A DNA stretch of 59,907 bases from Candidatus Hydrogenedentota bacterium. GTDB taxonomy: Bacteria; Hydrogenedentota; Hydrogenedentia; Hydrogenedentales; SLHB01. This document shows, one piece after another, positions 6,012 to 59,907 of the stretch. Position 1 is the stretch's first letter. Each line of letters starts with the position of its first letter. The translations under genes were made by a program, and so were the position numbers. The notes beneath the pieces were generated by a model, which was not told the origin of the DNA, did no database searches, and saw nothing but the letters and a program-made list of their open reading frames with translations. The DNA is taken from contig JARKSN010000246.1 of NCBI GenBank assembly GCA_029974275.1, positions 1 through 59,907 of the forward strand. The letters are read 5' to 3'.

Positions 6012-6584
6012 CTACCAAGGCTCAACGGTGCGATAAAAAATCTCCGACGCGAGCTGCTCGAGCGCTTCCGAAGCCGCCCGGTTCTCTTCTTCGCTGGAAA
6101 ACGAACGGACGGTTGCCAAAAAGACTTCGGCATTGCCCCGCAAACGGTCCGACGACTGCCCCGAGGCCCGCGTGTAATAGCTTGTCTCGCCGGTCACGTC
6201 CTTCGCCTCCCACAGGACTTTGCCCGTCTGTCTCTCGGACACGCGCACCCCGCCGGTGATCACGCAAATATACTGCGTCACGTTGTCCTTCTTGTCGTAG
6301 GTAAGACCGCGCAATGCATACTTCAGGACCACCCCTTCGAGCACCAAATCCGCGGTCTCATACGGAGCGACCCTCAAACGTCCGTCGTTGGTGAATTTCC
6401 GGATGACGGCGTTGGTCAACGGCGCCGCAAGGTCGTACTCCTTGCTGTGGTTCTTGAACGCGGAAACGTAGATTGTCTGGTACTTCGGAAGCAGCGAACT
6501 CTGCGTCGTATACCCGCAGCCCGTCATGCCGGCAAAGAAACCGGTCATCACGATCGCCATGACTCCTGTCCGCATGGCGCTCAT
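6012..6584 (-). CDS. lptE: LPS assembly lipoprotein LptE family
   Basis: Lipobox MTGC followed by GY, IYVSAFKN and ADLVLEGVV. ATG at 6584 overlaps the bamD stop (ATGA). Confidence 0.8.
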   Translation of the reverse strand: MSAMRTGVMAIVMTGFFAGMTGCGYTTQSSLLPKYQTIYVSAFKNHSKEYDLAAPLTNAVIRKFTNDGRLRVAPYETADLVLEGVVLKYALRGLTYDKKDNVTQYICVITGGVRVSERQTGKVLWEAKDVTGETSYYTRASGQSSDRLRGNAEVFLATVRSFSSEEENRAASEALEQLASEIFYRTVEPW

Positions 6585-7558
6585 GATGATGACGAAACGC
6601 CTTCCGTTGAATGACGCGCGAGCCACTCTTGCGCCTCCCGGGCGAAGGGGGTTTCAGAGAATTGATCGACCACGACTTGATAGCTCAAGCGGGCCGCCTC
6701 GAACTTCCGGCGCTTTTCATAGAACCGAGCCGTTTCCAGGCGCTGTTTGGCAATGACGTTGCGCATCTCGGCCCGCTTTCCGCTGAGGTCCTCCACGCGC
6801 GCATCCACGGGAAAACGCTGCTTGAAATCATCAATGGCGCCAATCGCAAGTTGGCTTGGGGCCTGATCATACGCCGCAGGCAGCGACTGCTCGTAATACG
6901 CCATCGCCAAGCCATAGCTGGCGTCGTCCACCCATTCCGATCCCGAATAATCTTCGATGACCCTGCGGTACTCATAGGCAGCCTCGGCGTACTCCTTGCG
7001 CATGACGTGGCACAATCCGACTTTGTATTGCGCCTCTGCCGCCGCAAGCGTGAAGGGCTGGTTGGCAATCACCATGCGGTACACTTCGATGGCCTGCTTG
7101 AAGGGCTTCTTTTTGAACGGGCGAAAACGCTTTCCTTTCCGCTCCAGGCCGCTTTCATACAACTTGTCGCCGATCTCATACTGTTTCGCGATGACCGCAT
7201 CGTAAAGCGCGCTAGCCGGATACGCGGTCACGACCTGCTGAAATTCCTTGGCGGCATCGACATACTCTTCCTGGGCCAAGCGAATCTCGCCGCGCAAAAA
7301 CTGGTTTTGATCGCTGAGCGGACTGCCCGCGTAGTAGTCGATGAACTTGTCCGTCTCTTGATAGGCCTTGCGATAGTCGCCCTTCACAAGCAAACCCCGC
7401 GCATACTCGATTTGCAGTTCGTCGGTCTCCTTGGGCATTCGCTTGACGTTGATCCAACGCTTGGTCTGCGGGGTCCACGTCCACTGGGCCTCGGCGGCCG
7501 TCTGGACGACAAAAACAACAGCCACCGCCCACGCTGCACAACTCAACCACTTACGCAT
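6581..7558 (-). CDS. bamD: Outer membrane protein assembly factor BamD-like TPR protein
   Basis: TPR repeats, YDQAPSQLAI..F..RFP and ETARFYEKR..AARLSYQ.V (BamD C-terminal pattern). ATG at 7558 followed by a signal peptide. Confidence 0.8.
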   Translation of the reverse strand: MRKWLSCAAWAVAVVFVVQTAAEAQWTWTPQTKRWINVKRMPKETDELQIEYARGLLVKGDYRKAYQETDKFIDYYAGSPLSDQNQFLRGEIRLAQEEYVDAAKEFQQVVTAYPASALYDAVIAKQYEIGDKLYESGLERKGKRFRPFKKKPFKQAIEVYRMVIANQPFTLAAAEAQYKVGLCHVMRKEYAEAAYEYRRVIEDYSGSEWVDDASYGLAMAYYEQSLPAAYDQAPSQLAIGAIDDFKQRFPVDARVEDLSGKRAEMRNVIAKQRLETARFYEKRRKFEAARLSYQVVVDQFSETPFAREAQEWLARHSTEGVSSSS

Positions 7559-7633
7559 ATTCACGTCCTCGTGTTCTCCTGATCGCTGGCGCATTCGGCG
7601 CACGCCGCCTCGGGCGGACGCCCCGCGCCGCAA

Positions 7634-7693: not shown

Positions 7694-9085
7694 CTATTTC
7701 TTCCCCGGCAATGTATGAATGCCCACGCCCAAAAAATCCTCGGCGGCTTCCATGACCGTCTCGGCGAGGGTGGGATGCGTATGGATCGTGTGGGCAATAT
7801 CGTCGACGGTCGCTTCGAGCGACATGGCCATCGCGGCGGCGGCGTTCAGTTCGCCTGCCTCGGGTCCCATGATATGCACGCCGACGACTTCGTTGGTGCG
7901 CGCGTCGCCGACGATCTTCACCATGCCGTCGGTCTCGCCCATCGCTTGCGCGCGACCGCTGGCGACAAAATCAAAGCGGCCAATCTTCACGTCGATACCC
8001 GCTGCACGCGCGGCGGTTTCGGTCAGGCCGACGCTGGCCACTTCCGGCGAGATGAAATTGCACGCAGGAACGACGCGATAGTCCATCTTCTTGCGCCCGC
8101 CCGTCGCGTTCTCGGCGGCGACGAGTCCCTCGCACGAAGCGCCGTGCGCGAGCAGGGTCTTCCCCACCACGTCGCCTATCGCGTAAATGCCCGGCACGCT
8201 GGTCTCCAGGTATTCGTCCACGAGGATCTCGCCGCGCTTGCCGATTTTCACGCCAAGGCCAGGCGTCGAGGTAACCACTTCGCTATAATAGCGGCGCCCA
8301 ATGCCGACCAGCACGAGGTCCACGTCGATAACGCCGGCCTTTGCGCCTTCGAGCGTTAGCGTCACCCCCGAGGGCTTGCGTTCGAGTTTCGCGACGGTCG
8401 TGCCCGTGCGGACGTCGATGCCTTTCTTCTTGAACCCTGCCGCAACGCGTTTCGCGAGTTCCTCGTCCTCGCGCGGCAGGACATTCGGCATCATCTCGAT
8501 CAACGTGACCTCGACGCCGAACGCATTCCAGATGCACGCGAACTCGGCGCCCAACGCGCCCGCGCCGATGACGGCGATGCGTTTCGGCAACTCAGCGAGT
8601 TCAAGGGCTTCCGTGCTGGTGATGACCTGCTTGCCGTCGGTTTCGAGACCCGGCAACTGCGCAGGGCCGCCGCCCGTCGCGATGATGATGGACTTGACGG
8701 TGTAGGGGGTTCCAGCGGACTCAACGGTGCGCGGTCCCGTGACGCGCGCGTCCCCTTTGACAACATCGATGCCGTGGGCCTTGAATAGGGCCGCGATGCC
8801 GCCCTTGTTGCGGCGGATGACGTCGCGTTTGCGCTTAAGGATGGCGCTCATGTCAAAACCGAGCCCCTCGACCTTCAGGCCGTACTCGGAGGCGTGTTGC
8901 AGCTTGCGGTAGAGATCGGCGCTGGTGATCAGGGTCTTGGTCGGGATACAGCCCCAATTCAGACACACGCCGCCCAACTCCTCGCGCTCGAACGCCACGA
9001 CCTTCGCCCCGCGCTGCGCCGCGCGAATCGCCGCCACATACCCGCCAGGCCCAGCGCCAATCACTGCAACATCATAGGATGACAT
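7694..9085 (-). CDS. lpdA: Dihydrolipoyl dehydrogenase (E3)
   Basis: GAGPGGYVAAIRAAQ, GGVCLNWGCIPTK redox disulfide and HTHPTLAE. Confidence 0.95.
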   Translation of the reverse strand: MSSYDVAVIGAGPGGYVAAIRAAQRGAKVVAFEREELGGVCLNWGCIPTKTLITSADLYRKLQHASEYGLKVEGLGFDMSAILKRKRDVIRRNKGGIAALFKAHGIDVVKGDARVTGPRTVESAGTPYTVKSIIIATGGGPAQLPGLETDGKQVITSTEALELAELPKRIAVIGAGALGAEFACIWNAFGVEVTLIEMMPNVLPREDEELAKRVAAGFKKKGIDVRTGTTVAKLERKPSGVTLTLEGAKAGVIDVDLVLVGIGRRYYSEVVTSTPGLGVKIGKRGEILVDEYLETSVPGIYAIGDVVGKTLLAHGASCEGLVAAENATGGRKKMDYRVVPACNFISPEVASVGLTETAARAAGIDVKIGRFDFVASGRAQAMGETDGMVKIVGDARTNEVVGVHIMGPEAGELNAAAAMAMSLEATVDDIAHTIHTHPTLAETVMEAAEDFLGVGIHTLPGKK

Positions 9086-13365: not shown

Positions 13366-14025
13366 ATGTCTCCCAAGAGGAAAACTAGCCTCATCATCGC
13401 AGTGTTATGCGGCGCGACCCTGGCGGCTGTCAGCGCGGCGGAGGATCGGAAAGGCGACCCATATCCCCTAGGCTTCTGCCCCGTAAGCGGGGAACGCCTG
13501 GGTTCGATGGGCTCGCAGATGATCAAAACGTACGCGGGCAGAGAAATACGATTCTGCTGCGCCGGATGCACGGCCGCGTTTGAAGCCGACAAGGCCAAGC
13601 ATCTCAAAAAAATCGACGAGGAGATCATCAAACAACAGGCGACGCAGTATCCGCTGGACATATGCGTGGCGACCGGAGCGAAACTCGATGCGAGCGCCGT
13701 GGAATGCGTGATCGGCAATCGCCTGTTCCGGGTGTGCCGCGAGGGCTGTAAGGCAGAGGTGGAAAAGGATTTGGCGAAATACCTGGACATCCTCGACAAA
13801 GCCGTGGTTGCCAAGCAAAAAGACGCATATCCATTGGATGTATGCGTCGTCAGCGGCCAAAAATTGGGGAGCATGGGGGAACCGGTGAATTACGTCATCG
13901 GATCGCGCTTGGTCCGTTTCTGCTGTTCGGGCTGCATCGCGTCGTTCGAAAAGGACCCGGCGAAATACTTATCTGTGCTTGACGCGGCGCCAAAGCCCGC
14001 GGCCGCCAGCGCGGAAACCCGATAA
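13366..14025 (+). CDS. Exported protein with three YHS/TRASH-like Cys-rich repeats
   Basis: Signal peptide; three YPLxxCxVxG...RxCCxGC-type units; AGGAGG RBS. Confidence 0.7.
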   Translation: MSPKRKTSLIIAVLCGATLAAVSAAEDRKGDPYPLGFCPVSGERLGSMGSQMIKTYAGREIRFCCAGCTAAFEADKAKHLKKIDEEIIKQQATQYPLDICVATGAKLDASAVECVIGNRLFRVCREGCKAEVEKDLAKYLDILDKAVVAKQKDAYPLDVCVVSGQKLGSMGEPVNYVIGSRLVRFCCSGCIASFEKDPAKYLSVLDAAPKPAAASAETR

Positions 14026-14029
14026 CTCC

Positions 14030-14881
14030 TCACAGGCCAAGGCGAACGAGACGCGAAGCGACCTCCTCGTTGAAACGCGCGATAATGTCCGCGATGAAGT
14101 TGGCAGGGCTCAGCATGTCGTTGACGATCAGCGGCGTGAGATCCATCGCAAAGCTACAGCCCGTCGTGACGTCCGTGCCGTGCGATGCGTGGTACGTCGC
14201 GTGCGCGCGCCGCCGCCCCATCGTAGCGAGGTCATACCGTTTTCCGCCGGCAATCTGCGAATCGAACACGCCGAGCAGTGCCGCTTGAAGGTTCTCATGG
14301 CCGGAACAGTCGAACGCGATTTTGTCGGCATCGATCATCCAATCAAGGTCGCGCCAGACCTCGCACCCGTAGAGCGCTTTCGGGCGTCGCGCCGTGGGTA
14401 GACTACGAATCGCGGCGATGGTCTTGAGCGCAACGCCAACGTGCGTATCGTGCTTGTCCGCGAGATTATGGGTGTACATGACTTCCGGTTGCATCGCGTC
14501 GATCAGCAGGGCGATGTCCGCGATTGGTTCCCGGTTTGCGCCGTCTTTGACCGCCGAACTGGGGAAGTCCAGCAGCGCCAATGCCGCGTATTCGCCCACA
14601 ACAGCCGCTTTTTTCTGCTCTTTGAAGCGGACCGTATGCATGTCCTCGTCCGAAAAATCCCTGTATACATCGTCTCGCGGCGATCCCCGGCCATCCGTCA
14701 GCACCACGCCGGAAAACCACTTGTCCTCGCGCTGGAAGCACCGCACAATCCCGTCGTACGCCATGATTTCGAGGTCGTCCTGATGCGCTGCCACGGCCAA
14801 ATGCGTCGTGCGAGACAAAGCTTCCGGCTCCGCAACCCCATCCGCAACGAACAACTGCGCCGTATTCTGTGAGAACGTCAT
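14030..14881 (-). CDS. PIG-L/LmbE family deacetylase
   Basis: AAHQDDLE and THNLADKHDTH metal-binding motifs. Confidence 0.85.
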   Translation of the reverse strand: MTFSQNTAQLFVADGVAEPEALSRTTHLAVAAHQDDLEIMAYDGIVRCFQREDKWFSGVVLTDGRGSPRDDVYRDFSDEDMHTVRFKEQKKAAVVGEYAALALLDFPSSAVKDGANREPIADIALLIDAMQPEVMYTHNLADKHDTHVGVALKTIAAIRSLPTARRPKALYGCEVWRDLDWMIDADKIAFDCSGHENLQAALLGVFDSQIAGGKRYDLATMGRRRAHATYHASHGTDVTTGCSFAMDLTPLIVNDMLSPANFIADIIARFNEEVASRLVRLGL

Positions 14882-14996
14882 GGAAAGTCCTTTCTTCTAT
14901 GCCTTTCGTCACCCTTCCCTTTGCGCGAAGCGCACGCAAACGTTTTGGGTAGAAATCCGGCAAAAACCTTCTTTTCAAAAGGTTCGCCCTGCGCCT

Positions 14997-16391
14997 CTAT
15001 AACGCCGGCAAACTGGCCGCAGCGATGGATTGCCCCACGCGCCGGGCCTTCTCGTCTGGAAGCTGGACCTTGATTTGTCTTGCAAGCGCTGGAAACTCGC
15101 CATCAAGCACTTCCTGCGCCCCCGTGACAATCAAATCACCGCCGCGCCCTGACGTGCACCGCCCCAGAATCAGCACATGTTTCAGCGCGTAAAAATCGGC
15201 GTAATGCGCGATCGCGTAGCCGAGGTAGCGCCCCATGCTCTGCCAAATCTTCTGTGCGCCCTCGTGGCCTTCCTCTAGCTTCGCCTGTACAAGCTTCAAC
15301 CGATCGGCATCCGTGACGTTTGCCGGCAACTCAATGCCTGCCTTTGCCGTCAGGCGAAATACGCATTGTTGCGACAAGTACAGAGCGCCCACGCCTCGGT
15401 CTTGCGACCATTCGTCCGTGGGCGCATCGGGGCTATAGTCAATCGGGGCGAACGCCAACTCGTTGAGCCACCCCGTGATATTGCCGTCCAACGTGACATA
15501 GCCGCCGGCCTCGCTTGACCCCAATGCCACGCCCAGCACGCCGTTGTCTTCCAGCGACATGGAACCTGCCAGCGCCGTCACCTCGCCGTCGTTGACGACT
15601 TCGACCGGCACGTCCATCTCCCGTTGGATACGCAAGAAAAGGTCATGCACCTTATGAAACTGGTCCTTGGGAACGCCGCGAAACAGCGAAGCAATCATCG
15701 GCCGATTGTTGATGATCACCCCCGCCGAACTGCCGCCGATCGCATCCACCCGTGGCATTTTCGTCGCCGCCGCTCGGAGGGCAGTCATGATTTCACGGAA
15801 ATGATACTCGGGGTCCGTCTGCTTGCGCGGTTCCCAAACGACTTCTTCACTGTATACGGCTTCGCCGTCCACGACAGCCGACACTTTGCGATCCGACGCG
15901 CCGAGATCGAAGCCGATCCGGCAACCGTCCAGGTGACGCCCCAAGGGCTTCGTGGTTTCTCTCTCGGCGGGCACGTTCTGCACCGAGCACGCGACGATGG
16001 AAAAGGTTTTTTCGTAGACCGATTCGCCCATGAACTGGTGATCGAAGCGACGGTCGCCCTGAGGCGAATAGCACGCGCGAAGATGCGCGGCAATGTCCGC
16101 CGAACCACCCACATACACCGTGCATCCGCCGCGTTGCCACAGCAAAAACTTCAACAACCGCTCCACATAGCACAGATTTGCCCCGGCGCGCGGGTGGCCG
16201 TCGGGGTACACCCGAGTCTCATACCGCGACACCGAACCATCGCCCCGCTCCAACCCCAACGCCAATGATGTCGCGACGCCCGATGCGTCCAGTTCGCGCA
16301 AGTACGCGTGGTTGGCCAAGACCGCCGGACGGAAGCCCGGGTCTAGCGGCGGCGTAAAAGCGGGAGAAACAAGCGGAAATCCCTCTGTCAT
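14997..16391 (-). CDS. ROK family sugar kinase-like protein with N-terminal extension
   Basis: IGFDLGASDRK, VVNDGEVTALAG, ALGSSEAGGY and NELAF. ATG at 16391 after GAGGAG. Confidence 0.8.
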   Translation of the reverse strand: MTEGFPLVSPAFTPPLDPGFRPAVLANHAYLRELDASGVATSLALGLERGDGSVSRYETRVYPDGHPRAGANLCYVERLLKFLLWQRGGCTVYVGGSADIAAHLRACYSPQGDRRFDHQFMGESVYEKTFSIVACSVQNVPAERETTKPLGRHLDGCRIGFDLGASDRKVSAVVDGEAVYSEEVVWEPRKQTDPEYHFREIMTALRAAATKMPRVDAIGGSSAGVIINNRPMIASLFRGVPKDQFHKVHDLFLRIQREMDVPVEVVNDGEVTALAGSMSLEDNGVLGVALGSSEAGGYVTLDGNITGWLNELAFAPIDYSPDAPTDEWSQDRGVGALYLSQQCVFRLTAKAGIELPANVTDADRLKLVQAKLEEGHEGAQKIWQSMGRYLGYAIAHYADFYALKHVLILGRCTSGRGGDLIVTGAQEVLDGEFPALARQIKVQLPDEKARRVGQSIAAASLPAL

Positions 16392-16979
16392 GGCGACGCA
16401 CTCCTCGCACTCGTTTACATAGGATAGCCCTCGCAAAAAACCGACTCTGGATATATACAGAAGAAAAGATCCTCATTCCAGCTTCTTCACGCCCCCGCCG
16501 TACAAGCCTTCGCCTCATGCCGCCATTCCGTCCGTTCCGCCGCCCCCCTGAGTCAAACAGACGCATTTACCTTCAAAGCTATCGCATTAACATTTCAATC
16601 CGTCCGAGCGCGCGTTGGGGCAAGCGACAAGACGCCATCCCGCCGTTCCGGATCCGATCGGCCAGAACGCTCTGCCCCTCAAACGTGCTTGGCATATGAA
16701 TATCGACTCTTGCGCCCAGACCCTCGGCGCAAAAACCGGCGCTACGGCACATCACCGATGACCATGCTCATCTGCCGTTGCCTTGAACCCATTCCGTCCA
16801 GCTTCTATCATGCGGGCGATCGGTTGCCGGGATGAAAACGCGTCCTGTTTTTTTTGCGGCGTTCGCGCAACGGGAGTACACTAAGCCATACGGAAAAACG
16901 CCGCACAACGCGCCGGTCCGGTCCTAGCTTGGGCAATCCGTCCCTAGGCGAGGATTCCCGGAGAATAAGGTAAGAACGC

Positions 16980-51615: not shown

Positions 51616-53229
51616 CTACTTTCCCCTCCTCGCCATCTGCCACACCGCATCAAGCTCTCCAATCCCCATTGCCTTGCTTATCGCCCCATAGACCGCCGCA
51701 GCCGTCGCGATGGGCAAAGCAACGCCCGCCAGCCGCATCAAGACCGTATCCTGCGGCCACCAGATGTGCACGCGGACGTACACGCCATACGCCACGCACG
51801 CCATGATAATCGCCGCAAAAGTCATCTTCCCCAATCCTTCGAGAAAATTCCGATCCCACAAGCGCCCAATGCGACTGCACAACATCAGGTACAGCAACGC
51901 GAAGTTGACCGTGAAAGAAATCGTCGTCGCCAAGGCCAAACCACGAAAACCCATCGGCTTGATGAGCGCAGCATTGAGCAAGACATTGAGCAGAATACTC
52001 GCCGTCGCGATCTTCACGGGCGTCTTGGTGTCCAGCAACGCATAGAACCCGCCAACCGTCACCTTCACCCACGCAAACGCCAACAAGCCCGTCGAAAAAT
52101 AAGCCAGGGCCGCCGCTGCATCAAGCGTGGTCTGGGCATTCGTGCGCACGCCATACTCGAACAACAGCCGCATAATCGGCTCGCGCAACGCGATAAGCCC
52201 CAGCATGGACGGCGCGATCAAGAAAAAACTGAATCGCAGGCCCTGCATCAACGTCGCACGCATCTCGTCGTGCGCCCCGCGAGCGCCCGCCCGCGAAATC
52301 CGCGGCAGAATCGCCGCCGAAACAGCCATGCCAAACATGGCCAACGGAAGCTGCGTCAGGCGATTGCCAAGATACAACGCATTCACCGCGCCAGGCCCCA
52401 GCGAATTGGCGAACATCAGATCGATCAACTTGTTCACCTCATTGGCCGACTGGCCAATGAGAACGGGAACTAGCAGCAGATAGATGCGCCGCATATCGGG
52501 ATGATTATAGCGAAAAATAGGCATCCACACGCCCGTATGCTTGCCCATGGCGATCCAGTTGATGACGACATGCGAAATGCCGCCGACCCACACGCCCAGC
52601 GCCAGCGCATACGCGGGATCGGGAAACCTCTTCAAAATGAACGGCATGCTCGCAAGGATGAGCGCAACGTTGAGCAACGACGGCGTCCATGACGGCGTCG
52701 CATAATGCCGGACTGCGAACAACGGGCCCATCATGAAAACCGCCACGCCGATAAAAAACAGATACGGGAAAGTCCACCGCGCCACCGACGTGGTGAGCGC
52801 CACATACGCGGGGTCCAGCTTCTTCGCCCCCGTGAGCCACATGAGCTGGTCCGCCCCCGCCAACGGAAGATGCACAAACGCCACGCCCAACGCCGTCATC
52901 GCGGCAAGCACAACCAACATGTTGCCCAGCGCAACGCCCACCAATTCGCGAAACGCCGCATCATCGCGCTTCTCTTGCGTCTCGGAAAAAACAGGAATAA
53001 ACGCCGCATTTGCAGCGCCCTCGCCAATCAACTCGCGAAACATATTCGGAAGGCGAAACGCAATGTTGAAGGCCCCGAAAGAAGCCTCCGGAATCTGCGT
53101 CGCGTTGACGATATCCCGTGCCATGCCAAGCACGCGACTCAGCAGCGTGCCCATCGCAAAAACCGCCGCATTCCGCGAGAAATGCGCCTGTTTCGCCTCC
53201 TTCTTACTCACGACGCGCGCCTCGGACAT
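51616..53229 (-). CDS. murJ: Lipid II flippase MurJ (MviN)
   Basis: LLSRVLGMARD, AFRLPNMFRELIGEGA..AAFIP, RLTQLP and FYALLDTKTP; many TM helices. Confidence 0.94.
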   Translation of the reverse strand: MSEARVVSKKEAKQAHFSRNAAVFAMGTLLSRVLGMARDIVNATQIPEASFGAFNIAFRLPNMFRELIGEGAANAAFIPVFSETQEKRDDAAFRELVGVALGNMLVVLAAMTALGVAFVHLPLAGADQLMWLTGAKKLDPAYVALTTSVARWTFPYLFFIGVAVFMMGPLFAVRHYATPSWTPSLLNVALILASMPFILKRFPDPAYALALGVWVGGISHVVINWIAMGKHTGVWMPIFRYNHPDMRRIYLLLVPVLIGQSANEVNKLIDLMFANSLGPGAVNALYLGNRLTQLPLAMFGMAVSAAILPRISRAGARGAHDEMRATLMQGLRFSFFLIAPSMLGLIALREPIMRLLFEYGVRTNAQTTLDAAAALAYFSTGLLAFAWVKVTVGGFYALLDTKTPVKIATASILLNVLLNAALIKPMGFRGLALATTISFTVNFALLYLMLCSRIGRLWDRNFLEGLGKMTFAAIIMACVAYGVYVRVHIWWPQDTVLMRLAGVALPIATAAAVYGAISKAMGIGELDAVWQMARRGK

Positions 53230-54737
53230 ACAGCGATTCCGATAAACATGAACGTAAGCGCCAACGCAATCCACGGAAAGAACACAGGGCCGCCGGGCAG
53301 CGGGCTTTGCGCCGCCTTGGGCAACGGCAGCGCGCCTGCCAGGCGGTTGCCTTCCTGTATCAGTCGCCCTTCCTTCGCACAGGCAAGCGGAGTAAGAACG
53401 CCATAGGGATCGATTATCCCGGTGACCCCGGTATTGCTCACATGCACCATCGGCAGGCGCGTCTCGACGCAGCGCAAGCGCGCAATCTCAATCTCCTCCG
53501 GAATCGCGTTGCTCGCCCCAAACCATGCCAGATTAGTGATGACCACGAGAAAATCGGCGCCATCCCGCCGCAGGCGTTCGGCCATCTCGGGGAAAAGCGT
53601 CTCAAAACAGATGAGCGGTCCGAATCGCCGCTTGCCCACATCGAAGAGGCGCGCCTCGGCGCCGGGCTCGACCTCCCCGATCGACGGGACCACCTTGGAT
53701 ACAAACGGAAGCAGCCTGCCCAAAGGCACATACTCGCCAAAAGGAGCCAAGTGAATCTTGTCGTAATGCCCCGCAACCCTTCCCGAGGCATCCAACAACA
53801 CGCCGGCATTACGTTCGTTGCCGGTTTCGTCATCTTCGCGAAAGACCCCGGTGAACAACGGCGTGTTTGTGCACGCAGCCATCGCCTGAAGACGGGCGAA
53901 TATCTCCGGATCGCCGATATCGCGCATGACAAGCGCCTCCGGCCAGACAAAGAGGTCCTGCCGCCCCCCCGTCGCCAACGCCTCCGAATACGTCGCGGCC
54001 CGATCGACCATCTCGAAGGTATACGCCGGATCCCATTTCATTTCGAGCGGATAGGCCGATTGATACATGCCCACTTGGAAAGGATCCGGATCATATTGGG
54101 GCGCATCAAGCAAAAGATACTGACCGCCCAGATGGGTCAACCCTAGAATAACCGCGATCGCCGAACCGCGGATCGCGCCGACCAAGCCGCCAGGAAATTC
54201 CACAACAGCGGCTGCAACAAGGGCATTCACAAGGACAACCACAAACGCGATAAGCCCCGTCCCTCCCACAGACGCAAGTTGCAGCAACGGCAGGTCATTC
54301 GCCTGCGAATAGGCCAACGCCCCCCAGCCAAACCCCGTAAACAGACGGGCCTGCAGCCACTCCATGCTTACCCACACGACCGCCAGCGCAAACGACTGCG
54401 GAAGCCAGACGCATCGCCCCCGCATCCACGCCCACAACGCGCCGCACCCCGCCCAATATCCAGCCATCAACGCACAGAGCGCAAGATACCCCCAGATGGC
54501 CCAACCGCCCGCCCAATAAACGTTTGAAAGCAGCCATTGCAAGAGAAGAAGATAGAACACACCCCCCGCCAAAAAGAACTGCCGGGCCGACTCGGCCGGA
54601 CCGCAACGCAACGTCCTTGCCAACAACGGAACCAACGCGATCCAGACCAACCCATACAAATGATACGTCGGAAAACAAACGGCAAGCGCCGCCCCCGATA
54701 TCAGAGCGGCGCCATGTCGGCGAATGCACACATGCAT
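53208..54737 (-). CDS. lnt: Apolipoprotein N-acyltransferase
   Basis: FTGFGW, VWPE, YDKIHLAPFGEYVP, ICFE and TNLAWFG. ATG at 54737. Confidence 0.93.
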   Translation of the reverse strand: MHVCIRRHGAALISGAALAVCFPTYHLYGLVWIALVPLLARTLRCGPAESARQFFLAGGVFYLLLLQWLLSNVYWAGGWAIWGYLALCALMAGYWAGCGALWAWMRGRCVWLPQSFALAVVWVSMEWLQARLFTGFGWGALAYSQANDLPLLQLASVGGTGLIAFVVVLVNALVAAAVVEFPGGLVGAIRGSAIAVILGLTHLGGQYLLLDAPQYDPDPFQVGMYQSAYPLEMKWDPAYTFEMVDRAATYSEALATGGRQDLFVWPEALVMRDIGDPEIFARLQAMAACTNTPLFTGVFREDDETGNERNAGVLLDASGRVAGHYDKIHLAPFGEYVPLGRLLPFVSKVVPSIGEVEPGAEARLFDVGKRRFGPLICFETLFPEMAERLRRDGADFLVVITNLAWFGASNAIPEEIEIARLRCVETRLPMVHVSNTGVTGIIDPYGVLTPLACAKEGRLIQEGNRLAGALPLPKAAQSPLPGGPVFFPWIALALTFMFIGIAVCPRRAS

Positions 54738-54760
54738 GCTCCCCACATTCCCCCGTCGGG

Positions 54761-55843
54761 TCACCCCCCGCTTTGCATGATTTGGATTTCCTTCCTGAAA
54801 CCCTCGGTATGCTTCCACCCTTCGCTCTGCCAGAAATTCAATGCGTTGTTCGCCTCGGAATCAAGATTCCGGAGATCCACCACCGTCGGCGAAATAAACA
54901 CCAACAAATGACTCTTGGTCGGCTCTGTCCGGCGCGAACGGAACGGAATGCCCACCAGCGGAATCGCGCCCAACAACGGAACACGGTTCTCCGTACGGTT
55001 CACCACGCTGCTGGTCAATCCTCCTATCACAAGCGTCTGGCCGCTCGGCACCACCACAAGACCCGACTGCGATCGCGTCGAAAACACCGGCAAATCAATC
55101 CCACGCAGCCGCTGCACACGCGCAATATCGCTCACATCGAGCTGACCGATATTGATCTGCACCAGATTGTCCGCAATGGACTGAGCGTTCAGGCGCATCG
55201 TCACCCCCAAATCGCGCCATGCCACGTTCAACGTCGCCCGGCCGTTCGGATAACTAATGTCCTGAAACGGAAATTGCCCCCCCGCATGCACCAGCGCCTC
55301 CTGCCCATCCCGCACAAGAAGTTCGGGCTTACTGACCAAATCGGAATCCGTCTTTGTCTCGATGGAACGAAAAACGCCATCGATCGATCCATGCCGGCTA
55401 TCGACAATATCGAACGTCAGCCCAGCCCCATTCTGCGCCTGAATCCCATCCGACAACGGAGGATGCAAATCCGGACGCAACACCGTGCCGCTCGGGGGCA
55501 CATTCGGGACCCCCGTGAACGACGGATCGCTCGGATCCGTCACCGGCGCCGGCAACGTCACACGATATGAATTGCTGGTCGGACTGAATAGATTCGACGT
55601 CACCCGCCCCACCGCGCCATTCCGCGCCTCGCCGCGCACATACCGCGTATACGTGAGATTCGTGCCCAAATCGCGCAGGCCTTGCTCGCTCGTCTCGATA
55701 AACCACACCTTGATCTGCGTTTGCTTGATCGACGTCGCCAGCGCATCCCCCGCACCCGGGGCCGGCTCCTGAGCCTCCGCCACGCAACAAATGGCCGCCG
55801 CGCCGACCGCCAAGAGAACTCGCAAAACCCGCCGCCATTTCAT
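54761..55843 (-). CDS. Secretin-domain-only outer membrane protein (paralog 2)
   Basis: Signal peptide directly followed by QTQIKVWFIE; SKPELLVRDGQEA.VHAGGQFP, LGVTMRL, SGQTLVIGGL, VPLLGAIPLVGIPFR and LLVFISPTVV. Confidence 0.85.
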   Translation of the reverse strand: MKWRRVLRVLLAVGAAAICCVAEAQEPAPGAGDALATSIKQTQIKVWFIETSEQGLRDLGTNLTYTRYVRGEARNGAVGRVTSNLFSPTSNSYRVTLPAPVTDPSDPSFTGVPNVPPSGTVLRPDLHPPLSDGIQAQNGAGLTFDIVDSRHGSIDGVFRSIETKTDSDLVSKPELLVRDGQEALVHAGGQFPFQDISYPNGRATLNVAWRDLGVTMRLNAQSIADNLVQINIGQLDVSDIARVQRLRGIDLPVFSTRSQSGLVVVPSGQTLVIGGLTSSVVNRTENRVPLLGAIPLVGIPFRSRRTEPTKSHLLVFISPTVVDLRNLDSEANNALNFWQSEGWKHTEGFRKEIQIMQSGG

Positions 55844-57120
55844 TTCCTCTTCCCCCCGCCGCCCAACTCAGACTCAATCCCCTTCCCGTCGCCCGTGCGC
55901 CCAATCCCCTGCACAATCCCCTCGGGAATCGTCGAAATGCCCTCCAACACATTCGTGATGACATCCGACGGCGACGTCTTCGGCTTGCTCCCTTCCTCCT
56001 CGGCATTCTCGGTAAATCCATGCTCCGGCGCCACCGTAAACGCCGGCTTCCAAATCTCCGCCTTGATCAAAAAAACCAACTCCCGCCGCGTATTGTCCGC
56101 CTTTCGGCTTCCCACGGCGCTCGTGATCGGCGAACCGATAAAATCGCCCGGCACAACCCGCTCCACCAACCCCACAGCCAAATCCTCCGCACGCGGCAGC
56201 CACGGCATCGTCGCCACCGTCGTCTTGCGATTGTTCCGGTACATCCCCCCCAAAATCAGCACCTGCCCATTCTTCACCCACACCGTCGTATTCACGCGAC
56301 GCGTCACAAACTCCGGCACCTGAATCTGCCCCCCCGCCGCAGCATCCAACGCAACCACATACCGCTGCCCCGCCTCGTTCACCTCCGCGTCCACATTCAT
56401 CATGATGTACGTGTCATGGGTCGTGTTCCAGTCGCCATCATCATCTATCGCCTGCGGCACCGAAATCCGCAACTTCACCCCCGTCTCCCGGAACTTTGTC
56501 GTCGGCTGCACCGTAATCCCGACCACCGCCGTCTCCTCATACGGCACCTGATCCACCGTCTTGATCACCGTCGGGATCGGCGATCCCAACATCACCATGA
56601 CGCGAGGCTCCGACAAAATGCTCGCCCGATTCTCGCTCACCAGCCCCTGCAACGTTATCTCCATGTCTCCATTATTGATCTGAAGTTGATCCAGAAAAAC
56701 GCTCAGCCCCGACAACGACGGCGTCGGAAACGTCAAATCCGCCGACGTGATCGAACCGCCCCCCGCCACCACCCGGCCATACGCCCGAACCTCGTTCCGC
56801 CGCGCGAAATACGCGCTCAATCCCGTATCCACCCCGCGCGTCGTCTGGTATTCCACCACTTTCACCGAAACGTTAACCTGTTTGGGCGAACTCTCCACCG
56901 CCGGAACGACGCGCTGCTCCACAGGAGTCGGCTTCCATTGAATGGGCTGCGTCGGCTCAATCGGCGTCTGCTGCAAAAACGGCTCCGGAGGAGCCTGAGC
57001 CGCAGCCCCCACAGCCCACAATCCCGCCAGAACAAACGCCCGCCGCGCCACTGCCCTCGCCAGCGCAGACAAAAAACGTCCGATCCAACGTTCCTTATGC
57101 TCCCGTTGCCGCCTCTTCAT
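55840..57120 (-). CDS. Secretin-domain-only outer membrane protein (paralog 1)
   Basis: Signal peptide, Pro/Gln linker, PKQVNVSVKVVE, ILSEPRVMV, ETGVKLRI, NGQVLILGGM and RELVFLIKAEI. Start uncertain (57120 or 57132). Confidence 0.82.
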   Translation of the reverse strand: MKRRQREHKERWIGRFLSALARAVARRAFVLAGLWAVGAAAQAPPEPFLQQTPIEPTQPIQWKPTPVEQRVVPAVESSPKQVNVSVKVVEYQTTRGVDTGLSAYFARRNEVRAYGRVVAGGGSITSADLTFPTPSLSGLSVFLDQLQINNGDMEITLQGLVSENRASILSEPRVMVMLGSPIPTVIKTVDQVPYEETAVVGITVQPTTKFRETGVKLRISVPQAIDDDGDWNTTHDTYIMMNVDAEVNEAGQRYVVALDAAAGGQIQVPEFVTRRVNTTVWVKNGQVLILGGMYRNNRKTTVATMPWLPRAEDLAVGLVERVVPGDFIGSPITSAVGSRKADNTRRELVFLIKAEIWKPAFTVAPEHGFTENAEEEGSKPKTSPSDVITNVLEGISTIPEGIVQGIGRTGDGKGIESELGGGGKRK

Positions 57121-57172
57121 CCCCTGCCTCATGGTGACATTCCCATACGCCCTGTCCCGCCCACGCCGCGTC

Positions 57173-58159
57173 TCAACGATCAAAACTCGGCGCGCACTCA
57201 TACCGCAACACATTCTCAATATTGTCAAAATCGCCAAACCGGGCCGAAAAAGCCCGCGCCTCCCCCGCATTCAACCGCCCCAACGCAATCACCTTCGACC
57301 CATACACCGAATTGCCAAACCCGTAAATCGTCACCTCCACGCGAACCGAACGCAACGCCGCCCCGCTCCGATTCAACACGCGGCCCGAAACCACATAATA
57401 CAAATACGCATTCGTGCGCGAATCCCGACCGCTCTTGAACGAATGATCATCCACCACCGCCACCGGATTATCCTTGACGAACCGGCTCAACATCTCCGCC
57501 GGCGTCAACGGAATGTACTTCCCGTCACGCCGCCGCTCCACGCGCGATCGCACCTTCTCGTTCTGGGCATACTCCGGCTTCCGCTTCAAAAGAGCCGCAT
57601 ACGCCTTCGTCGCATTCGCATAATCCCCCTGACGCCAATACAAATCCGCCAACTCCAAGCGAAGCGACGCATCGTCCGGACTATCCCGCAGTTCCCGCCT
57701 CACCTCCCGAATACGCCGATCAAGGCCCTCCGCCGTATCAAACTTGCTCGAATATTCCTCCTTGAGACCCTCCAATTCCTCCCGCACCGCATCCGCCATT
57801 GGCCCATCAGGAGCCAACCGAAGATACTCCATCAAAACTTCCGCCGCCTCCTGATACCCATGAATCCCCCGATACGCCACGCCCAACCAATACCGAGCCT
57901 CCAACGCCGCCCGCGTGCCAGGATAGACCGTTACCGTCTGCCGCAACCGCGGAATCGCCGTCGCATAGTCCCGCGCCGCCACCAACTCGCGACTCTGCTG
58001 AACCGCCCGCTGTGCCGCCCCCTCGCGCAACGCCCCCCCCGAAGAAAGATCATCGGCCCTCAATCCACCCTGCGTCTGACAAGCGCCTGCCAACGCCACC
58101 CATCCCAACGCAAAAAGACAACGCGCCACAAGCGATGAAACACCTCTGACACGCCCCAT
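57173..58159 (-). CDS. TPR lipoprotein with C-terminal FxLYD-like Ig domain
   Basis: Probable lipobox (ALAGAC); TPRs (ARYWLGVAY, LELADLYWRQGDY); C-terminal VSGRVLNRSG...VRVEVTIYG...LNAGEARAF. Confidence 0.7.
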   Translation of the reverse strand: MGRVRGVSSLVARCLFALGWVALAGACQTQGGLRADDLSSGGALREGAAQRAVQQSRELVAARDYATAIPRLRQTVTVYPGTRAALEARYWLGVAYRGIHGYQEAAEVLMEYLRLAPDGPMADAVREELEGLKEEYSSKFDTAEGLDRRIREVRRELRDSPDDASLRLELADLYWRQGDYANATKAYAALLKRKPEYAQNEKVRSRVERRRDGKYIPLTPAEMLSRFVKDNPVAVVDDHSFKSGRDSRTNAYLYYVVSGRVLNRSGAALRSVRVEVTIYGFGNSVYGSKVIALGRLNAGEARAFSARFGDFDNIENVLRYECAPSFDR

Positions 58160-58255
58160 TACGCTTCCTCGCCCCAAATCATGCTCTCCCGCCTTTTCCA
58201 CAGCGGCCCTTCCTCTGCCAAAACTCCCCATCACCGTGCCGCGCCAACAACACCC

Positions 58256-58972
58256 CTACCCGCCCGACGCCCCAGAAACGGCGCCGGCATCGCCCGTCTT
58301 GGGCTTCTTCAACCTCCCCCAAAAACCGCGCTTTTCCTGCACGGGAGCTTTCTCGGACGTCTCCTTTTCCGTCGACGCAGACGAAACCGGCTCTTCCGTC
58401 GGAATCGACGATCCCTCCGGTCCTCCCGACGGGGCCGCCGGCGCAGGCTCCCCCGACGAAGCCGCCGGCGCAACCGAATCTTCCGGCTTCGCCGCCGCTT
58501 CCCGCATCTCGTTGCTTGCAGCCTTCTTCGCGACCGTCTTTGTCGATTTAAACGTTCTGCCTTTTCCGCGCTTCTTGTCCTGCAACTTCTCGATAACCCG
58601 CGCGGTCACATCATCCGCCTCGATAGGCGGTTGCAGACTGGCAAGATACCCCTTCGCCGCTATGAAATCGTACTCCATCTCCTGGGCCGCATCCGAAATC
58701 GCCCGAATCGCCCGATCGCTCGCCTGACTCAACAACAACCAATACTTGCCCGAACCCTGCTCCACCTTCTTCTTCTTCATATCCAAATATTCAGGAGCCG
58801 CCCGAACAATTTCGTCGAATCGAACCTCGCCCGGCTTGTCAAACCCCGCAACATTGCCCCAATACACCTTGGAAGAATCAACCTGAGCAGGAGGAACGCT
58901 GAACTGAGCCGCCCCTGCGGCCGTAGACAAACAAAAACCAAGAAGGAATGAAAACCAACGACATCGACGCAC
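58256..58972 (-). CDS. Exported OmpH/Skp-like protein lacking the long coiled-coil arms, with a low-complexity tail
   Basis: Signal peptide. KPGEVRFDEIVRAAPEY and AIRAISDAAQEMEYDFI...DDVTARVIEKL resemble the Skp N- and C-terminal body segments. Start uncertain. Confidence 0.5.
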   Translation of the reverse strand: MRRCRWFSFLLGFCLSTAAGAAQFSVPPAQVDSSKVYWGNVAGFDKPGEVRFDEIVRAAPEYLDMKKKKVEQGSGKYWLLLSQASDRAIRAISDAAQEMEYDFIAAKGYLASLQPPIEADDVTARVIEKLQDKKRGKGRTFKSTKTVAKKAASNEMREAAAKPEDSVAPAASSGEPAPAAPSGGPEGSSIPTEEPVSSASTEKETSEKAPVQEKRGFWGRLKKPKTGDAGAVSGASGG

Positions 58973-58985
58973 AACATGACAAACA

Positions 58986-59129
58986 TCAAGAACTTGCGTC
59001 ACCGATCCCGCTCGCCCCCAACCGGCGGAGCCATCTACGGATGTTCGGGTTCTCTGCACTGTGTACCGTCTCCACGCAGATAACTTCACCGGAGCCCGAG
59101 CGGGTGTCACCTTCTGACGCACTTCTCAA
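58986..59129 (-). ncRNA. Candidate rod-shaped structured RNA / 5' leader
   Basis: Nested pairings TTGAGAA/TTCTTGA, TGCGTCA/TGACGCA, CCCGCTCG/CGAGCGGG, CCGG/CCGG and ATCTGCG/CGTAGAT. G-U pairs work only on the minus strand. Begins right after a consensus promoter. Confidence 0.45.
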
Positions 59130-59134
59130 GAAAC

Positions 59135-59163
59135 ATTTTAGAGTGTGCGGCCCAAGCTGTCAA
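59135..59163 (-). promoter_or_regulatory. sigma70 promoter for the structured RNA and envelope operon
   Basis: TTGACA-17 nt-TAAAAT on the minus strand. Confidence 0.75.
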
Positions 59164-59523
59164 ACAACTACTTCCCCCCACACCCTACCCTCAACGAACC
59201 GCTTGCCCTGTCACAAAAAACATGGGCAACCCATACAAAATCATGCGTTTACAAAAAATCGCCGTCTGGCCTCGCAACCCGTTGCAGCAGCCTCGTACCT
59301 TCGAGGAGAACACTTGTTCCCGGGATCACAGCGCGACACCTTTTTTTCAAGGCTCCGCGCGCAGAGCCTAGGGCAAAAGGCCTCGCACAGGCCCGGTGAC
59401 GTGTGCATCGGGCTGCCAGACCCTTCCATAATCCCTTTGCCTCAAAAAAAGTTCCCTCTTGCCCATGACGATGCGATGCCATAGGCCCCAAGCCCCCCGC
59501 AATCAAGGCGCTTCTGCAGCGCC

Positions 59524-59907
59524 TCAATCAGCGGGTTCCGCAGGAGAAGAAACCGACGCCCGAGCACCTAATTTGGCAAGAGAGGCCAAATCCTCGAAAA
59601 AGGAACCAAACCATGCACGCATATCGTCTATCAGGGAATAAAACAACGGCACGACCACCAACGTCAATATCGTTCCCGTGATGAGGCCGCCAATGAGCGT
59701 ACGCCCCATGCTGCAAAACGACACCTGCCCCCCCGCCGCCGGCTCGAGCGCCATGGGCAAACTGCCCAGGACAGTCGTCAACGCCGTCATCATGACCGGA
59801 CGAAAACGGTCCAAACTCGCCTGCGATATCGCGTCGAGACGCGCCATGCCCCCGTTCCGAAGCTGATTGATATGATCGATGATCACAATCCCGTTTTTCA
59901 CGACAAT
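59524..59907 (-). CDS. RND efflux transporter permease (AcrB/CusA family), C-terminal fragment
   Basis: IVVKNGIVIID, RFRPVMMTALTTVLGSLPMAL and GGLITGTILTLVVVP; 5' part lies outside the window. Confidence 0.9.
   Translation of the reverse strand: MVVKNGIVIIDHINQLRNGGMARLDAISQASLDRFRPVMMTALTTVLGSLPMALEPAAGGQVSFCSMGRTLIGGLITGTILTLVVVPLFYSLIDDMRAWFGSFFEDLASLAKLGARASVSSPAEPAD

Follow-up and report, generated by a model that had tools for sequence, protein, structure and literature searches.

All secretins that have been studied in depth are, to our knowledge, regarded as outer-membrane ends of motors that span the envelope. Multimerisation of PilQ, the secretin of type IV pili (T4P), is driven by an outer-membrane lipoprotein made of tetratricopeptide repeats (TPR; PilF, PilW or Tgl), and the pilotins of GspD, the secretin of type II secretion systems (T2SS), are the small non-TPR proteins PulS and AspS. 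The phage secretin pIV retains N0 and N3 domains and works with the phage proteins pI/pXI. Here we analyse a four-gene cassette of a Candidatus Hydrogenedentota bacterium (assembly GCA_029974275.1, contig JARKSN010000246.1). It lies at 54761–58972 on the minus strand of a stretch of 59,907 nt, which as a whole is called the window below. The cassette encodes two secretins, which we call SecA and SecB, a TPR lipoprotein with an FxLYD domain, and a small Skp-like protein, the mini-Skp.

An excerpt of PMC6155069 describes secretin oligomerisation as founded on N3 and places the N3 loop of InvG at residues 217–265. N0 is the docking site for GspC and PilP, according to an excerpt of PMC10499894. 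The same excerpt gives RcpA of Pseudomonas aeruginosa an N-terminal VirB9-like domain (residues 28–112) and a 20-residue linker, with no N3. It adds that the TPR lipoprotein TadD is needed for RcpA assembly, binds the last four residues at RcpA's C-terminal tip and is alike to PilF. The secretin family and an N3-less precedent, RcpA, are already known. Our search of the open literature returned no description of N-domain-free secretins, of a conserved secretin paralogue pair, or of a secretin combined with an OmpH-like protein and an FxLYD lipoprotein.

We found that SecA and SecB are secretins cut down to the double-walled barrel, consisting of a signal peptide, a short linker, the secretin domain and a C-tail, and that the cassette is a real, conserved secretin module. 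The barrel-only pair is universal in one phylum, where it is accompanied by a lipoprotein and a reduced Skp-like protein, not by a motor. As to its function, we lean slightly towards a mixed-ring, pilotin-assisted and mini-Skp-supported secretin pore that is not hard-wired to an inner-membrane machine.

Two secretins reduced to the barrel

The cassette comprises the following features, in the order of their transcription:

58256–59122, minus strand: open reading frame (ORF) of the mini-Skp; likely GTG start at 58972, where the conserved part begins
57173–58234, minus strand: ORF of the TPR-FxLYD lipoprotein; likely ATG start at 58159 (328-residue form, 57173–58159)
55840–57270, minus strand: ORF of SecA; likely start at 57132 or 57120, just past the lipoprotein stop
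54761–55843, minus strand: SecB; Pfam Secretin match and structure model
55840–55843, minus strand: ATGA, in which the SecA stop TGA overlaps the SecB start ATG, read directly as AAATGAAATGG

An initial annotation, made from the sequence alone, had proposed two secretin paralogues joined by this ATGA, and the stop/start overlap was confirmed in the sequence. The first barrel strands that it named (PKQVNVSVKVVE and QTQIKVWFIE) and the insertion motifs YFARRNE..GRVV and YTRYVRGE..GRVT were likewise all found in the translations.

To establish what the two proteins are, we compared them with family profiles and with known folds. In a Pfam scan of the window proteins, which reported matches up to an expectation value (E) of 1, SecB matched Secretin (PF00263) with 114.1 bits against a cut-off of 27.5 over profile positions 3–169 of 169. 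SecA matched the same family with 74.9 bits over positions 2–137. Where they can be aligned, the two proteins are ~21–25% identical. A profile search of the PDB with SecB returned 22 secretin chains, with GspD as the best (E 2.9e-35). The NCBIfam models for GspD, PilQ, MshL and SctC scored far below their cut-offs and matched only from about residue 36 of SecB and 117 of SecA.

Structure models were then obtained with AlphaFold2 (AF2). The SecB model (m1323ed8fc564; 32-row alignment, predicted local distance difference test score (pLDDT) 70) shows a signal helix, a linker of ~14 residues and barrel strands from residue ~38–40. A loop at 84–139 is disordered and Pro-rich, and conserved (TLPxP, RPD); further barrel strands follow it, and the C-tail (329–359) is helical. 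In most orthologues, though not in the window copy, this conserved tail ends in an acidic-Leu motif. The SecA model (m5c47dbd21dcc; 20-row alignment, pLDDT 62) has a signal peptide, a Pro-rich linker of ~37 residues (disordered 41–84), a barrel from ~85, a helix insertion (311–326) before the last strand, and a C-tail that is conserved and disordered. The SecA linker is variable and missing in many orthologues. Several SecB orthologues carry long Pro/Ala-rich repeats of up to ~90 residues between signal peptide and strand 1, with a length that is highly variable across genomes (alignment A1, columns ~50–145).

When the SecB model was used for a fold search against the PDB with Foldseek, 40 matches had E <= 0.001. 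Every one listed was a secretin, and the probability was 1.00 for 28 listed secretin entries. Alignment with VIA-align gave Z 10–13.4 to 28 secretin entries, the highest score being that to GspD of V. cholerae (5wq8_A: Z 13.4, root mean square deviation (rmsd) 8.2, 242 residues). Both proteins retain the inner-barrel and gate-region segments of secretin alignments. The loop that precedes the last strand is canonical in SecB and has diverged in SecA. By their Pfam matches, both proteins belong to the secretin superfamily, and the SecB model has the secretin fold with its outer and inner β-sheets.

The domains that normally precede the barrel were then searched for. Within the limits of the Pfam scan, neither SecA nor SecB matched Secretin_N (PF03958) or N0 (PF21305), and neither AF2 model contains an α/β domain ahead of the first barrel strand. 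As a control, six long secretins of the same genome (503–1016 residues) were scanned, and five of them passed the Secretin_N cut-off; some additionally carry N0, STN, TPR or Poly_export domains. The sixth, on contig C130, had a Secretin_N match below the cut-off in that ORF (19.7 bits), and the C239 secretin had none. All Secretin_N matches of the genome fall in long secretins.

The structural alignments agree with the profile searches. VIA-align paired SecB 38 with residue 300 of an InvG chain that begins at 176 and comprises N3 and secretin domain, SecB 37 with residue 315 of V. cholerae GspD, and SecB 39 with RcpA 131, the start of the RcpA secretin domain (Z 11.7–13.4, rmsd 5–9 Å, ~200–250 residues). 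In all three partners, the aligned part begins together with the secretin domain. The N3 domain that directly precedes the barrel in the canonical secretin core is therefore not present in SecA or SecB. We also considered whether strand 1 could be β1 of an N3 domain, as the NCBIfam PilQ and SctC alignments begin at SecB 36–38; the secondary structure of the AF2 models and the ranges of the structural alignments exclude this. Thus, Pfam, which found Secretin without Secretin_N or any N3-like domain, the AF2 models, the alignment ranges and the short space left for a linker all agree with the earlier proposal of barrel-only secretins without N0–N3.

Conservation and coupling in Hydrogenedentota

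All 121 genomes sampled from the phylum, the present one (G000) among them, contain a SecB match at E <= 1e-10. Most matches were full-length at 43–64% identity, and a few genomes gave only weak or partial ones. Using tblastn on 20 regions of diverse genomes, we detected SecA and SecB in all 20, the lipoprotein in 19 and the mini-Skp in 19; the cassette is present in 18–19 of these regions.

A second, independent set consisted of 78 species loci that were collected by profile searches with the SecB alignment and are all Hydrogenedentota by content. Fifty of these loci extend 3.6 kb or more upstream of SecB, and all 50 show the same-strand order mini-Skp, TPR lipoprotein, SecA, SecB, so the proposed four-gene arrangement is conserved. 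In 48 of 72 species pairs, a candidate start codon of SecB shares 4 nt with the stop of SecA, and in a further 16 the overlap is 1 nt (64/72 in total); the counting script chose the start nearest to -4 and thereby favoured overlap. Both paralogues are present in every locus that covers both positions. Among the cassette-bearing records (L060, L070–L078, L121, L129 and others), many go under 'uncultured Nitrospirales/Nitrospiraceae', with a single 'Bathyarchaeia archaeon' and a single 'Eubacteriales'; automatic labelling or mis-binning is the probable cause.

A quick IQ-TREE maximum-likelihood tree placed SecA in one clade (20 rows, SH-like approximate likelihood ratio test (SH-aLRT) 99) and SecB in another (20 rows, SH-aLRT 91). 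It was computed from 46 rows by quick search only, with the masked locus L040 left out, and long branches meet at the base of SecA, SecB and the long secretins. Since both clades contain the deep lineage G001, the duplication is older than the diversity sampled here, and neither copy has since been lost. In genus g12 (L197, i.e. G037:C30 3428–10633, as well as L198, L025 and L026), the order is mini-Skp, TPR lipoprotein, SecA, SecB, SecB', Lnt, with a tandem extra SecB.

SecA and SecB most likely work together, because they are translationally coupled and have both been kept since before the sampled classes split. The pair could instead form two separate homo-oligomeric pores with different jobs, in which case the coupling would reflect co-expression and the helpers would be shared assembly factors. 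This reading overlaps both with the mixed-ring package and with that of a distant client machine weighed below. According to their titles, all solved secretins among the PDB matches are homo-oligomeric, the module outside the phylum has a single secretin (see below), genus g12 shows a flexible copy number with one SecA and two SecB, and the low identity between the paralogues also fits separate pores. Set against this are the overlapping stop and start in most species pairs, the retention of both paralogues in every covering locus, and the divergence of SecA before the last strand, which fits subfunctionalised subunits of one assembly. None of these three points is decisive. We regard two separate pores as unlikely, albeit a serious contender, and a mixed ring of SecA and SecB as the more plausible arrangement.

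The lipoprotein and the mini-Skp

The lipoprotein has a lipobox Cys at residue 27 of the 328-residue form, a TPR region and a C-terminal FxLYD domain, and the lipobox Cys is kept in at least 90% of 20 orthologues. TPR_16 matched with 46.5 bits (cut-off 32.7) and FxLYD (NF038353) with 27.2 bits (cut-off 23) at residues 279–337 of the 353-residue ORF. The TPR lipoprotein that had been annotated upstream of the secretins is thus supported by TPR families and by FxLYD, all above cut-off. It shares with the TPR pilotins (PilF/PilW/Tgl, TadD) the character of an outer-membrane TPR lipoprotein. It scored far below the cut-offs of the models of individual families, namely PilW (TIGR02521, 18.6 bits versus 154), BamD/YfiO (TIGR03302, 31.2 bits versus 81.4) and YbgF. 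A PDB profile search returned generic TPR proteins, BamD and CpoB, with no PilF, PilW or TadD among the best 60. By analogy with the TPR pilotins PilF and TadD, the lipoprotein's most likely role is to target the ring to the outer membrane or clamp it there.

The mini-Skp has a signal peptide, a conserved core of ~110 residues and an OmpH/Skp-like body with almost no arms (alignment A3). Its low-complexity tail is specific to this genome and its nearest relative. The window copy had no Pfam match at E <= 1, and a PDB profile search gave two chance-level rows (E 0.63 and 0.78). Its orthologues are more informative: OmpH (PF03938) was matched below threshold in five of five tested (15–26 bits versus 32.4). 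Over the seven orthologues scored in all, the range was the same, with E between 9e-6 and 0.02 and only profile positions ~68/93–141 covered. By these profile scores, the resemblance to OmpH is real, yet by the curated cut-off the mini-Skp is not a member of PF03938. The gene is single-copy in G000, G017 and G003.

We asked whether these two proteins are simply the housekeeping factors that they resemble. A canonical Skp is encoded on contig C231 of the same genome (77 bits versus 32.4), and the bona fide BamD lies in the window itself, ~50 kb from the cassette (6581–7633, also given as 6614–7117, minus strand; TIGR03302, 88 bits versus 81.4). Reading the mini-Skp as the canonical Skp and the lipoprotein as BamD was therefore rejected. 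As both bona fide proteins are encoded elsewhere, the two cassette proteins are not housekeeping factors.

A one-secretin version outside the phylum

When 1.84 billion representatives were searched with a profile, many proteins of ~290–400 residues came up in which the barrel starts right after the signal peptide. One of them, P0158 (398 residues), matches the mini-Skp profile A3 at residues 15–108 (hhalign probability 98.4%, E 4.5e-15). A linker of 16 residues separates this part from the first barrel strand and no second signal peptide is present, which makes a simple two-gene read-through unlikely. Among 669 longer candidate proteins, no further mini-Skp fusion was found at E <= 0.001 in a word-based and therefore weak search.

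The nearest relatives of P0158 are barrel-only secretins of 306–311 residues, one of them labelled Candidatus Calescamantes. We analysed six metagenome contigs of this type (L133–L138). Each encodes one barrel-only secretin of 306–311 residues, the L136 copy being cut by the contig end. A TPR lipoprotein is present in five of the six, and FxLYD was found in three of three scanned lipoproteins (one above and two below the cut-off; the L135 copy scored 31.7 bits). In the three of the six contigs in which the mini-Skp was detected, its stop and the start of the secretin share 4 nt. Flanking genes code for MutL, RuvB, GltX, V-ATPase subunits and a Wzy_C-TPR membrane protein; pilus genes are absent there.

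The gene for a conserved protein of 71–73 residues (for example L133 6442–6663, L134 3799–4014 and L135 6719–6937) is also present in all six of these loci, with the lipoprotein gene on one side and that of the mini-Skp or secretin on the other. The protein consists of a signal peptide and ~35 residues with an Asp-box-like S/TxDYGxxW motif. No counterpart was found in the Hydrogenedentota loci or the window.

Since the mini-Skp is fused to the N-terminus of a secretin in one relative, it may be a structural partner at the usual place of the N domains. It most likely binds the periplasmic face or the N-terminus of the secretin. The initial annotation had called it a Skp-like chaperone. The OmpH-like resemblance holds up; the chaperone label may be wrong, as most of the OmpH profile is missing and the relative carries the secretin fusion.

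Neighbouring genes and expression

The last 8 kb of the window hold six tightly packed minus-strand genes, i.e. the four of the cassette followed by lnt and murJ. Further features of this region are:

53208–54818, minus strand: lnt (apolipoprotein N-acyltransferase); probable start at 54737; TIGR00546, 275 bits versus a cut-off of 132.9
51616–53274, minus strand: murJ (lipid II flippase), downstream of lnt; TIGR01695, 337 bits versus 235.6
59135–59163, minus strand: sigma-70-like promoter candidate upstream of the mini-Skp gene, TTGACA-17-TAAAAT, 11/12

Both downstream genes had been named before and exceed their NCBIfam cut-offs. Among the 20 regions searched with tblastn, Lnt was found in 13 and MurJ in 12. 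In the species loci, lnt is next after SecB in 35 of the 62 with at least 2.5 kb downstream and is not in the other 27, and the order SecB, Lnt, MurJ occurs in 35 of 78. The position of lnt after SecB in those 35 of 62 loci is the evidence on which a link to envelope biogenesis rests.

From this neighbourhood, the proteins might be read as a structural envelope element, i.e. an outer-membrane/peptidoglycan spacer or growth scaffold, and not as a transport pore. Such a role would suit the frequent lnt and, in many loci, murJ, the O-antigen-ligase-like Wzy_C TPR membrane protein that follows the L133 secretin, and the housekeeping-like universality of the module in the phylum. The lnt neighbourhood is missing, however, in the 27 loci and in L135, the inner-barrel and gate-region segments are kept in both secretins, and Pfam detected no peptidoglycan-binding domain (AMIN, LysM, OmpA_C, SPOR) in the four proteins. 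A structural element is thus improbable compared with a secretin pore.

The promoter at 59135–59163 is a candidate only, because such sites are not enriched in the region (two, versus a mean of 2.8 in shuffled sequence). Upstream of it, at 59524–59907 on the minus strand, the window breaks off within what by eye resembles the C-terminal part of a gene for a resistance-nodulation-division (RND)-type efflux transporter. The RNA library X20 (oligo-dT, sludge) yielded two short contigs (56978–57111 and 59047–59200), both with adapter ends, and the remainder of the stretch was without cover in that run. These contigs are not counted as evidence of transcription, since DNA carry-over is possible. 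Seven runs of wastewater, activated-sludge and digester metagenomes contain at least half of the sampled words of the stretch, and the organisms carrying the module are so far known from metagenomes only. That the cassette consists of pseudogenes or chance ORFs is ruled out by its conservation.

Motor genes and other secretins of the genome

If the cassette served a classical secretion or pilus machine, motor genes might accompany it. Using tblastn with the genome's own proteins (E <= 1e-4), we found no GspE/PilB/PilT/CpaF, GspF/PilC/TadB or PilM in the window; contig C57, the positive control, gave the expected matches. The window contained no credible prepilin motif; its single match, in a 126-codon frame, was poor, versus 59 matches genome-wide. 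Both scans bear out the earlier statement that no ATPase, pilin or platform gene lies in the window. The same tblastn search found nothing in 20 Hydrogenedentota regions (~17 kb) and the six Calescamantes-type loci except one PilM in L048. A PilC-like gene lies within 6 kb in two of the 78 species loci.

The PilM in L048 belongs to the deep-branching genome G001 (G001:C4 5899–14952). There, the genes for the TPR lipoprotein, SecA and SecB are followed immediately, in the same orientation, by pilM, a PilN-like gene, pilO, a PilP-like gene and pilQ, the last encoding a PilQ of 873 residues with an AMIN domain.

The fragmented assembly of G000 contains 18 T2SSE (PF00437) matches, eight of them full-length and of GspE/PilB type, and 20 T2SSF matches. 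Each of its two PilM clusters has its own long secretin downstream. In the closed genomes, the ATPase nearest to the cassette is ~120 kb away in G017 and >1 Mb away in G022, and several ATPase loci of both genomes are without a nearby secretin.

Three long secretins of G000 have unusual layouts. On C130 (L049; 13404–16497, plus strand), a secretin is split: the ORF 13404–15215 has three Secretin_N matches, and a second gene (near 15259–16497) has its own signal peptide, a partial Secretin_N and a full Secretin domain. The contig additionally carries an ATPase and a platform gene. Given this split secretin, N domains supplied in trans exist in this lineage. The 505-residue protein on C167 (21228–22745, minus strand; L051 9229–10746) carries an N-terminal Poly_export domain (Wza-like, PF02563), then Secretin_N and Secretin, a sequence arrangement which suggests a secretin used for polysaccharide export. 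On C239 (2370–5420, minus strand; L054), a secretin of 1016 residues with N-terminal TPR repeats and long Gly-rich stretches is encoded downstream of PilM (8018–9025). It may be a real member of the NCBIfam Amuc_1098 family of type IV pilus outer-membrane proteins, which SecA and SecB match weakly.

Proposed mechanism and the possibility of a distant machine

In the proposed mechanism, SecA and SecB subunits would form a secretin-type pore ring in the outer membrane, plausibly one mixed ring in which both work together. Like PilF or TadD, the TPR-FxLYD lipoprotein would target the ring to the outer membrane or clamp it there. The mini-Skp would sit where N domains normally sit, either as a dedicated escort or, as we think likelier, as an N-domain ring or N3 substitute supplied in trans. 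We infer the latter from the fusion protein and from the translational coupling in the one-secretin version. The result would be a gated channel without a fixed connection to a T2SS, T4P or type III secretion system (T3SS), given the absent N0 docking site and the lack of accompanying motor genes in two phyla. A complex prediction of SecA 80–430 and SecB 36–360 with lipoprotein 28–328 scored 0.00 in two runs, which were made without controls.

Several observations weigh against this mixed-ring pore. First, the mini-Skp was not found in G001 (0 matches; the genome is 93% complete) and was not detected in three Calescamantes-type loci, so it is not indispensable, and the P0158 fusion is one protein on one 4.5-kb contig. 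Second, the confidence of the AF2 monomer models is middling (pLDDT 70 for SecB, 62 for SecA), and a protein without N3 may assemble otherwise than assumed, because N3 is described as the foundation of oligomerisation (excerpt of PMC6155069). Third, the genome is rich in T2SS and T4P machines, which makes a distal client possible: eight full-length GspE/PilB ATPases stand against six long secretins in G000, the closed genome G017 has at least three full-length ATPases without a secretin within ~25 kb, and the adjacency in G001 hints at a tie of the cassette to type IV pili.

This third group of points leads to the view that SecA and SecB are the outer-membrane exit of a T2SS-, T4P- or Tad-like machine encoded elsewhere, connected through a non-canonical adaptor that replaces N0. 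This adaptor might be the TPR-FxLYD lipoprotein or the mini-Skp, or else an N-domain protein encoded by a gene of its own. The excess of ATPases over long secretins in G000, with a similar one in G017 and G022, fits this view, as do the cassette abutting pilMNOPQ in G001 and the trans-supplied N domains of C130. However, SecA and SecB lack N0, the very site at which GspC and PilP dock, and all Secretin_N matches of G000 belong to long secretins. Moreover, both PilM clusters of G000 and the pil operon of G001 have their own long secretin, the flanks of the 20 and six loci are free of ATPase and platform genes, with only two of the 78 species loci having one nearby, and the nearest ATPase is remote in both closed genomes. 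We therefore consider a distant client machine rather unlikely.

The module could be used to test how general the N3 rule is, whether secretin rings can be hetero-oligomeric, whether gated secretin channels can stand alone, and whether the OmpH fold has a new role. The four-gene set would provide a minimal system for studying secretin assembly and gating.

Comparison with known systems

Skp/OmpH (PF03938) and the mini-Skp share a signal peptide, a periplasmic location and the C-terminal part of the OmpH profile (~93–141). The mini-Skp differs in its core of ~110 residues without most of the arm region, in its score below the cut-off and in its fusion to a secretin in P0158.

Phage pIV (7ofh) is likewise a small secretin (414-residue chain) found outside cellular pilus operons, and SecB aligns with it at Z 13.3 over 188 residues (rmsd 7.2). 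Phage genes, in contrast, were not observed with the module, which shows vertical conservation throughout the phylum.

PilQ with PilF/PilW/Tgl resembles the module in pairing a secretin with a TPR lipoprotein, and in G001 the cassette adjoins pilMNOPQ. Unlike SecA and SecB, PilQ has AMIN, N0 and N1 domains, and full-length secretins of PilQ type are encoded separately in the genome, downstream of pilM. The PilQ model TIGR02515 gave 87.5 and 64 bits, below its cut-off of 284.35, and matched at model positions 166/174–427 only.

GspD/PulD (5wq8, 6hcg, 5zdh) provides the best barrel matches in sequence and fold, and has a C-tail past the last strand, like the S domain. It differs by its N0-N1-N2-N3 domains, by forming a homo-15-mer and by being encoded with gspC–M. 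Of the GspD model TIGR02517 (cut-off 351.35), only the barrel part was matched, at 105.9 and 52.3 bits.

RcpA-TadD of P. aeruginosa (8odn) also has a short secretin with no N3 before the barrel, and SecB aligns with RcpA at Z 11.7 over 209 residues (rmsd 5.8). RcpA, in contrast, keeps an N-domain, and its tad locus also encodes ATPase, platform proteins and pilins, as the excerpt of PMC10499894 describes it. Unlike RcpA-TadD, the present module lacks any N domain and has no tad genes in the vicinity; it has two paralogues, a lipoprotein with FxLYD and a mini-Skp.

A tentative idea, which we would not yet call probable, is that the module represents a fourth type of secretin system, in addition to T2SS, T3SS and T4P/Tad/phage. 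This would be an ancient, autonomous pore without N domains or an inner-membrane ATPase, with an OmpH-like ring in trans and a TPR-FxLYD clamp, present in at least two candidate phyla and an obligate hetero-oligomer in Hydrogenedentota. If true, the Hydrogenedentota pore would be the first obligate hetero-oligomeric secretin.

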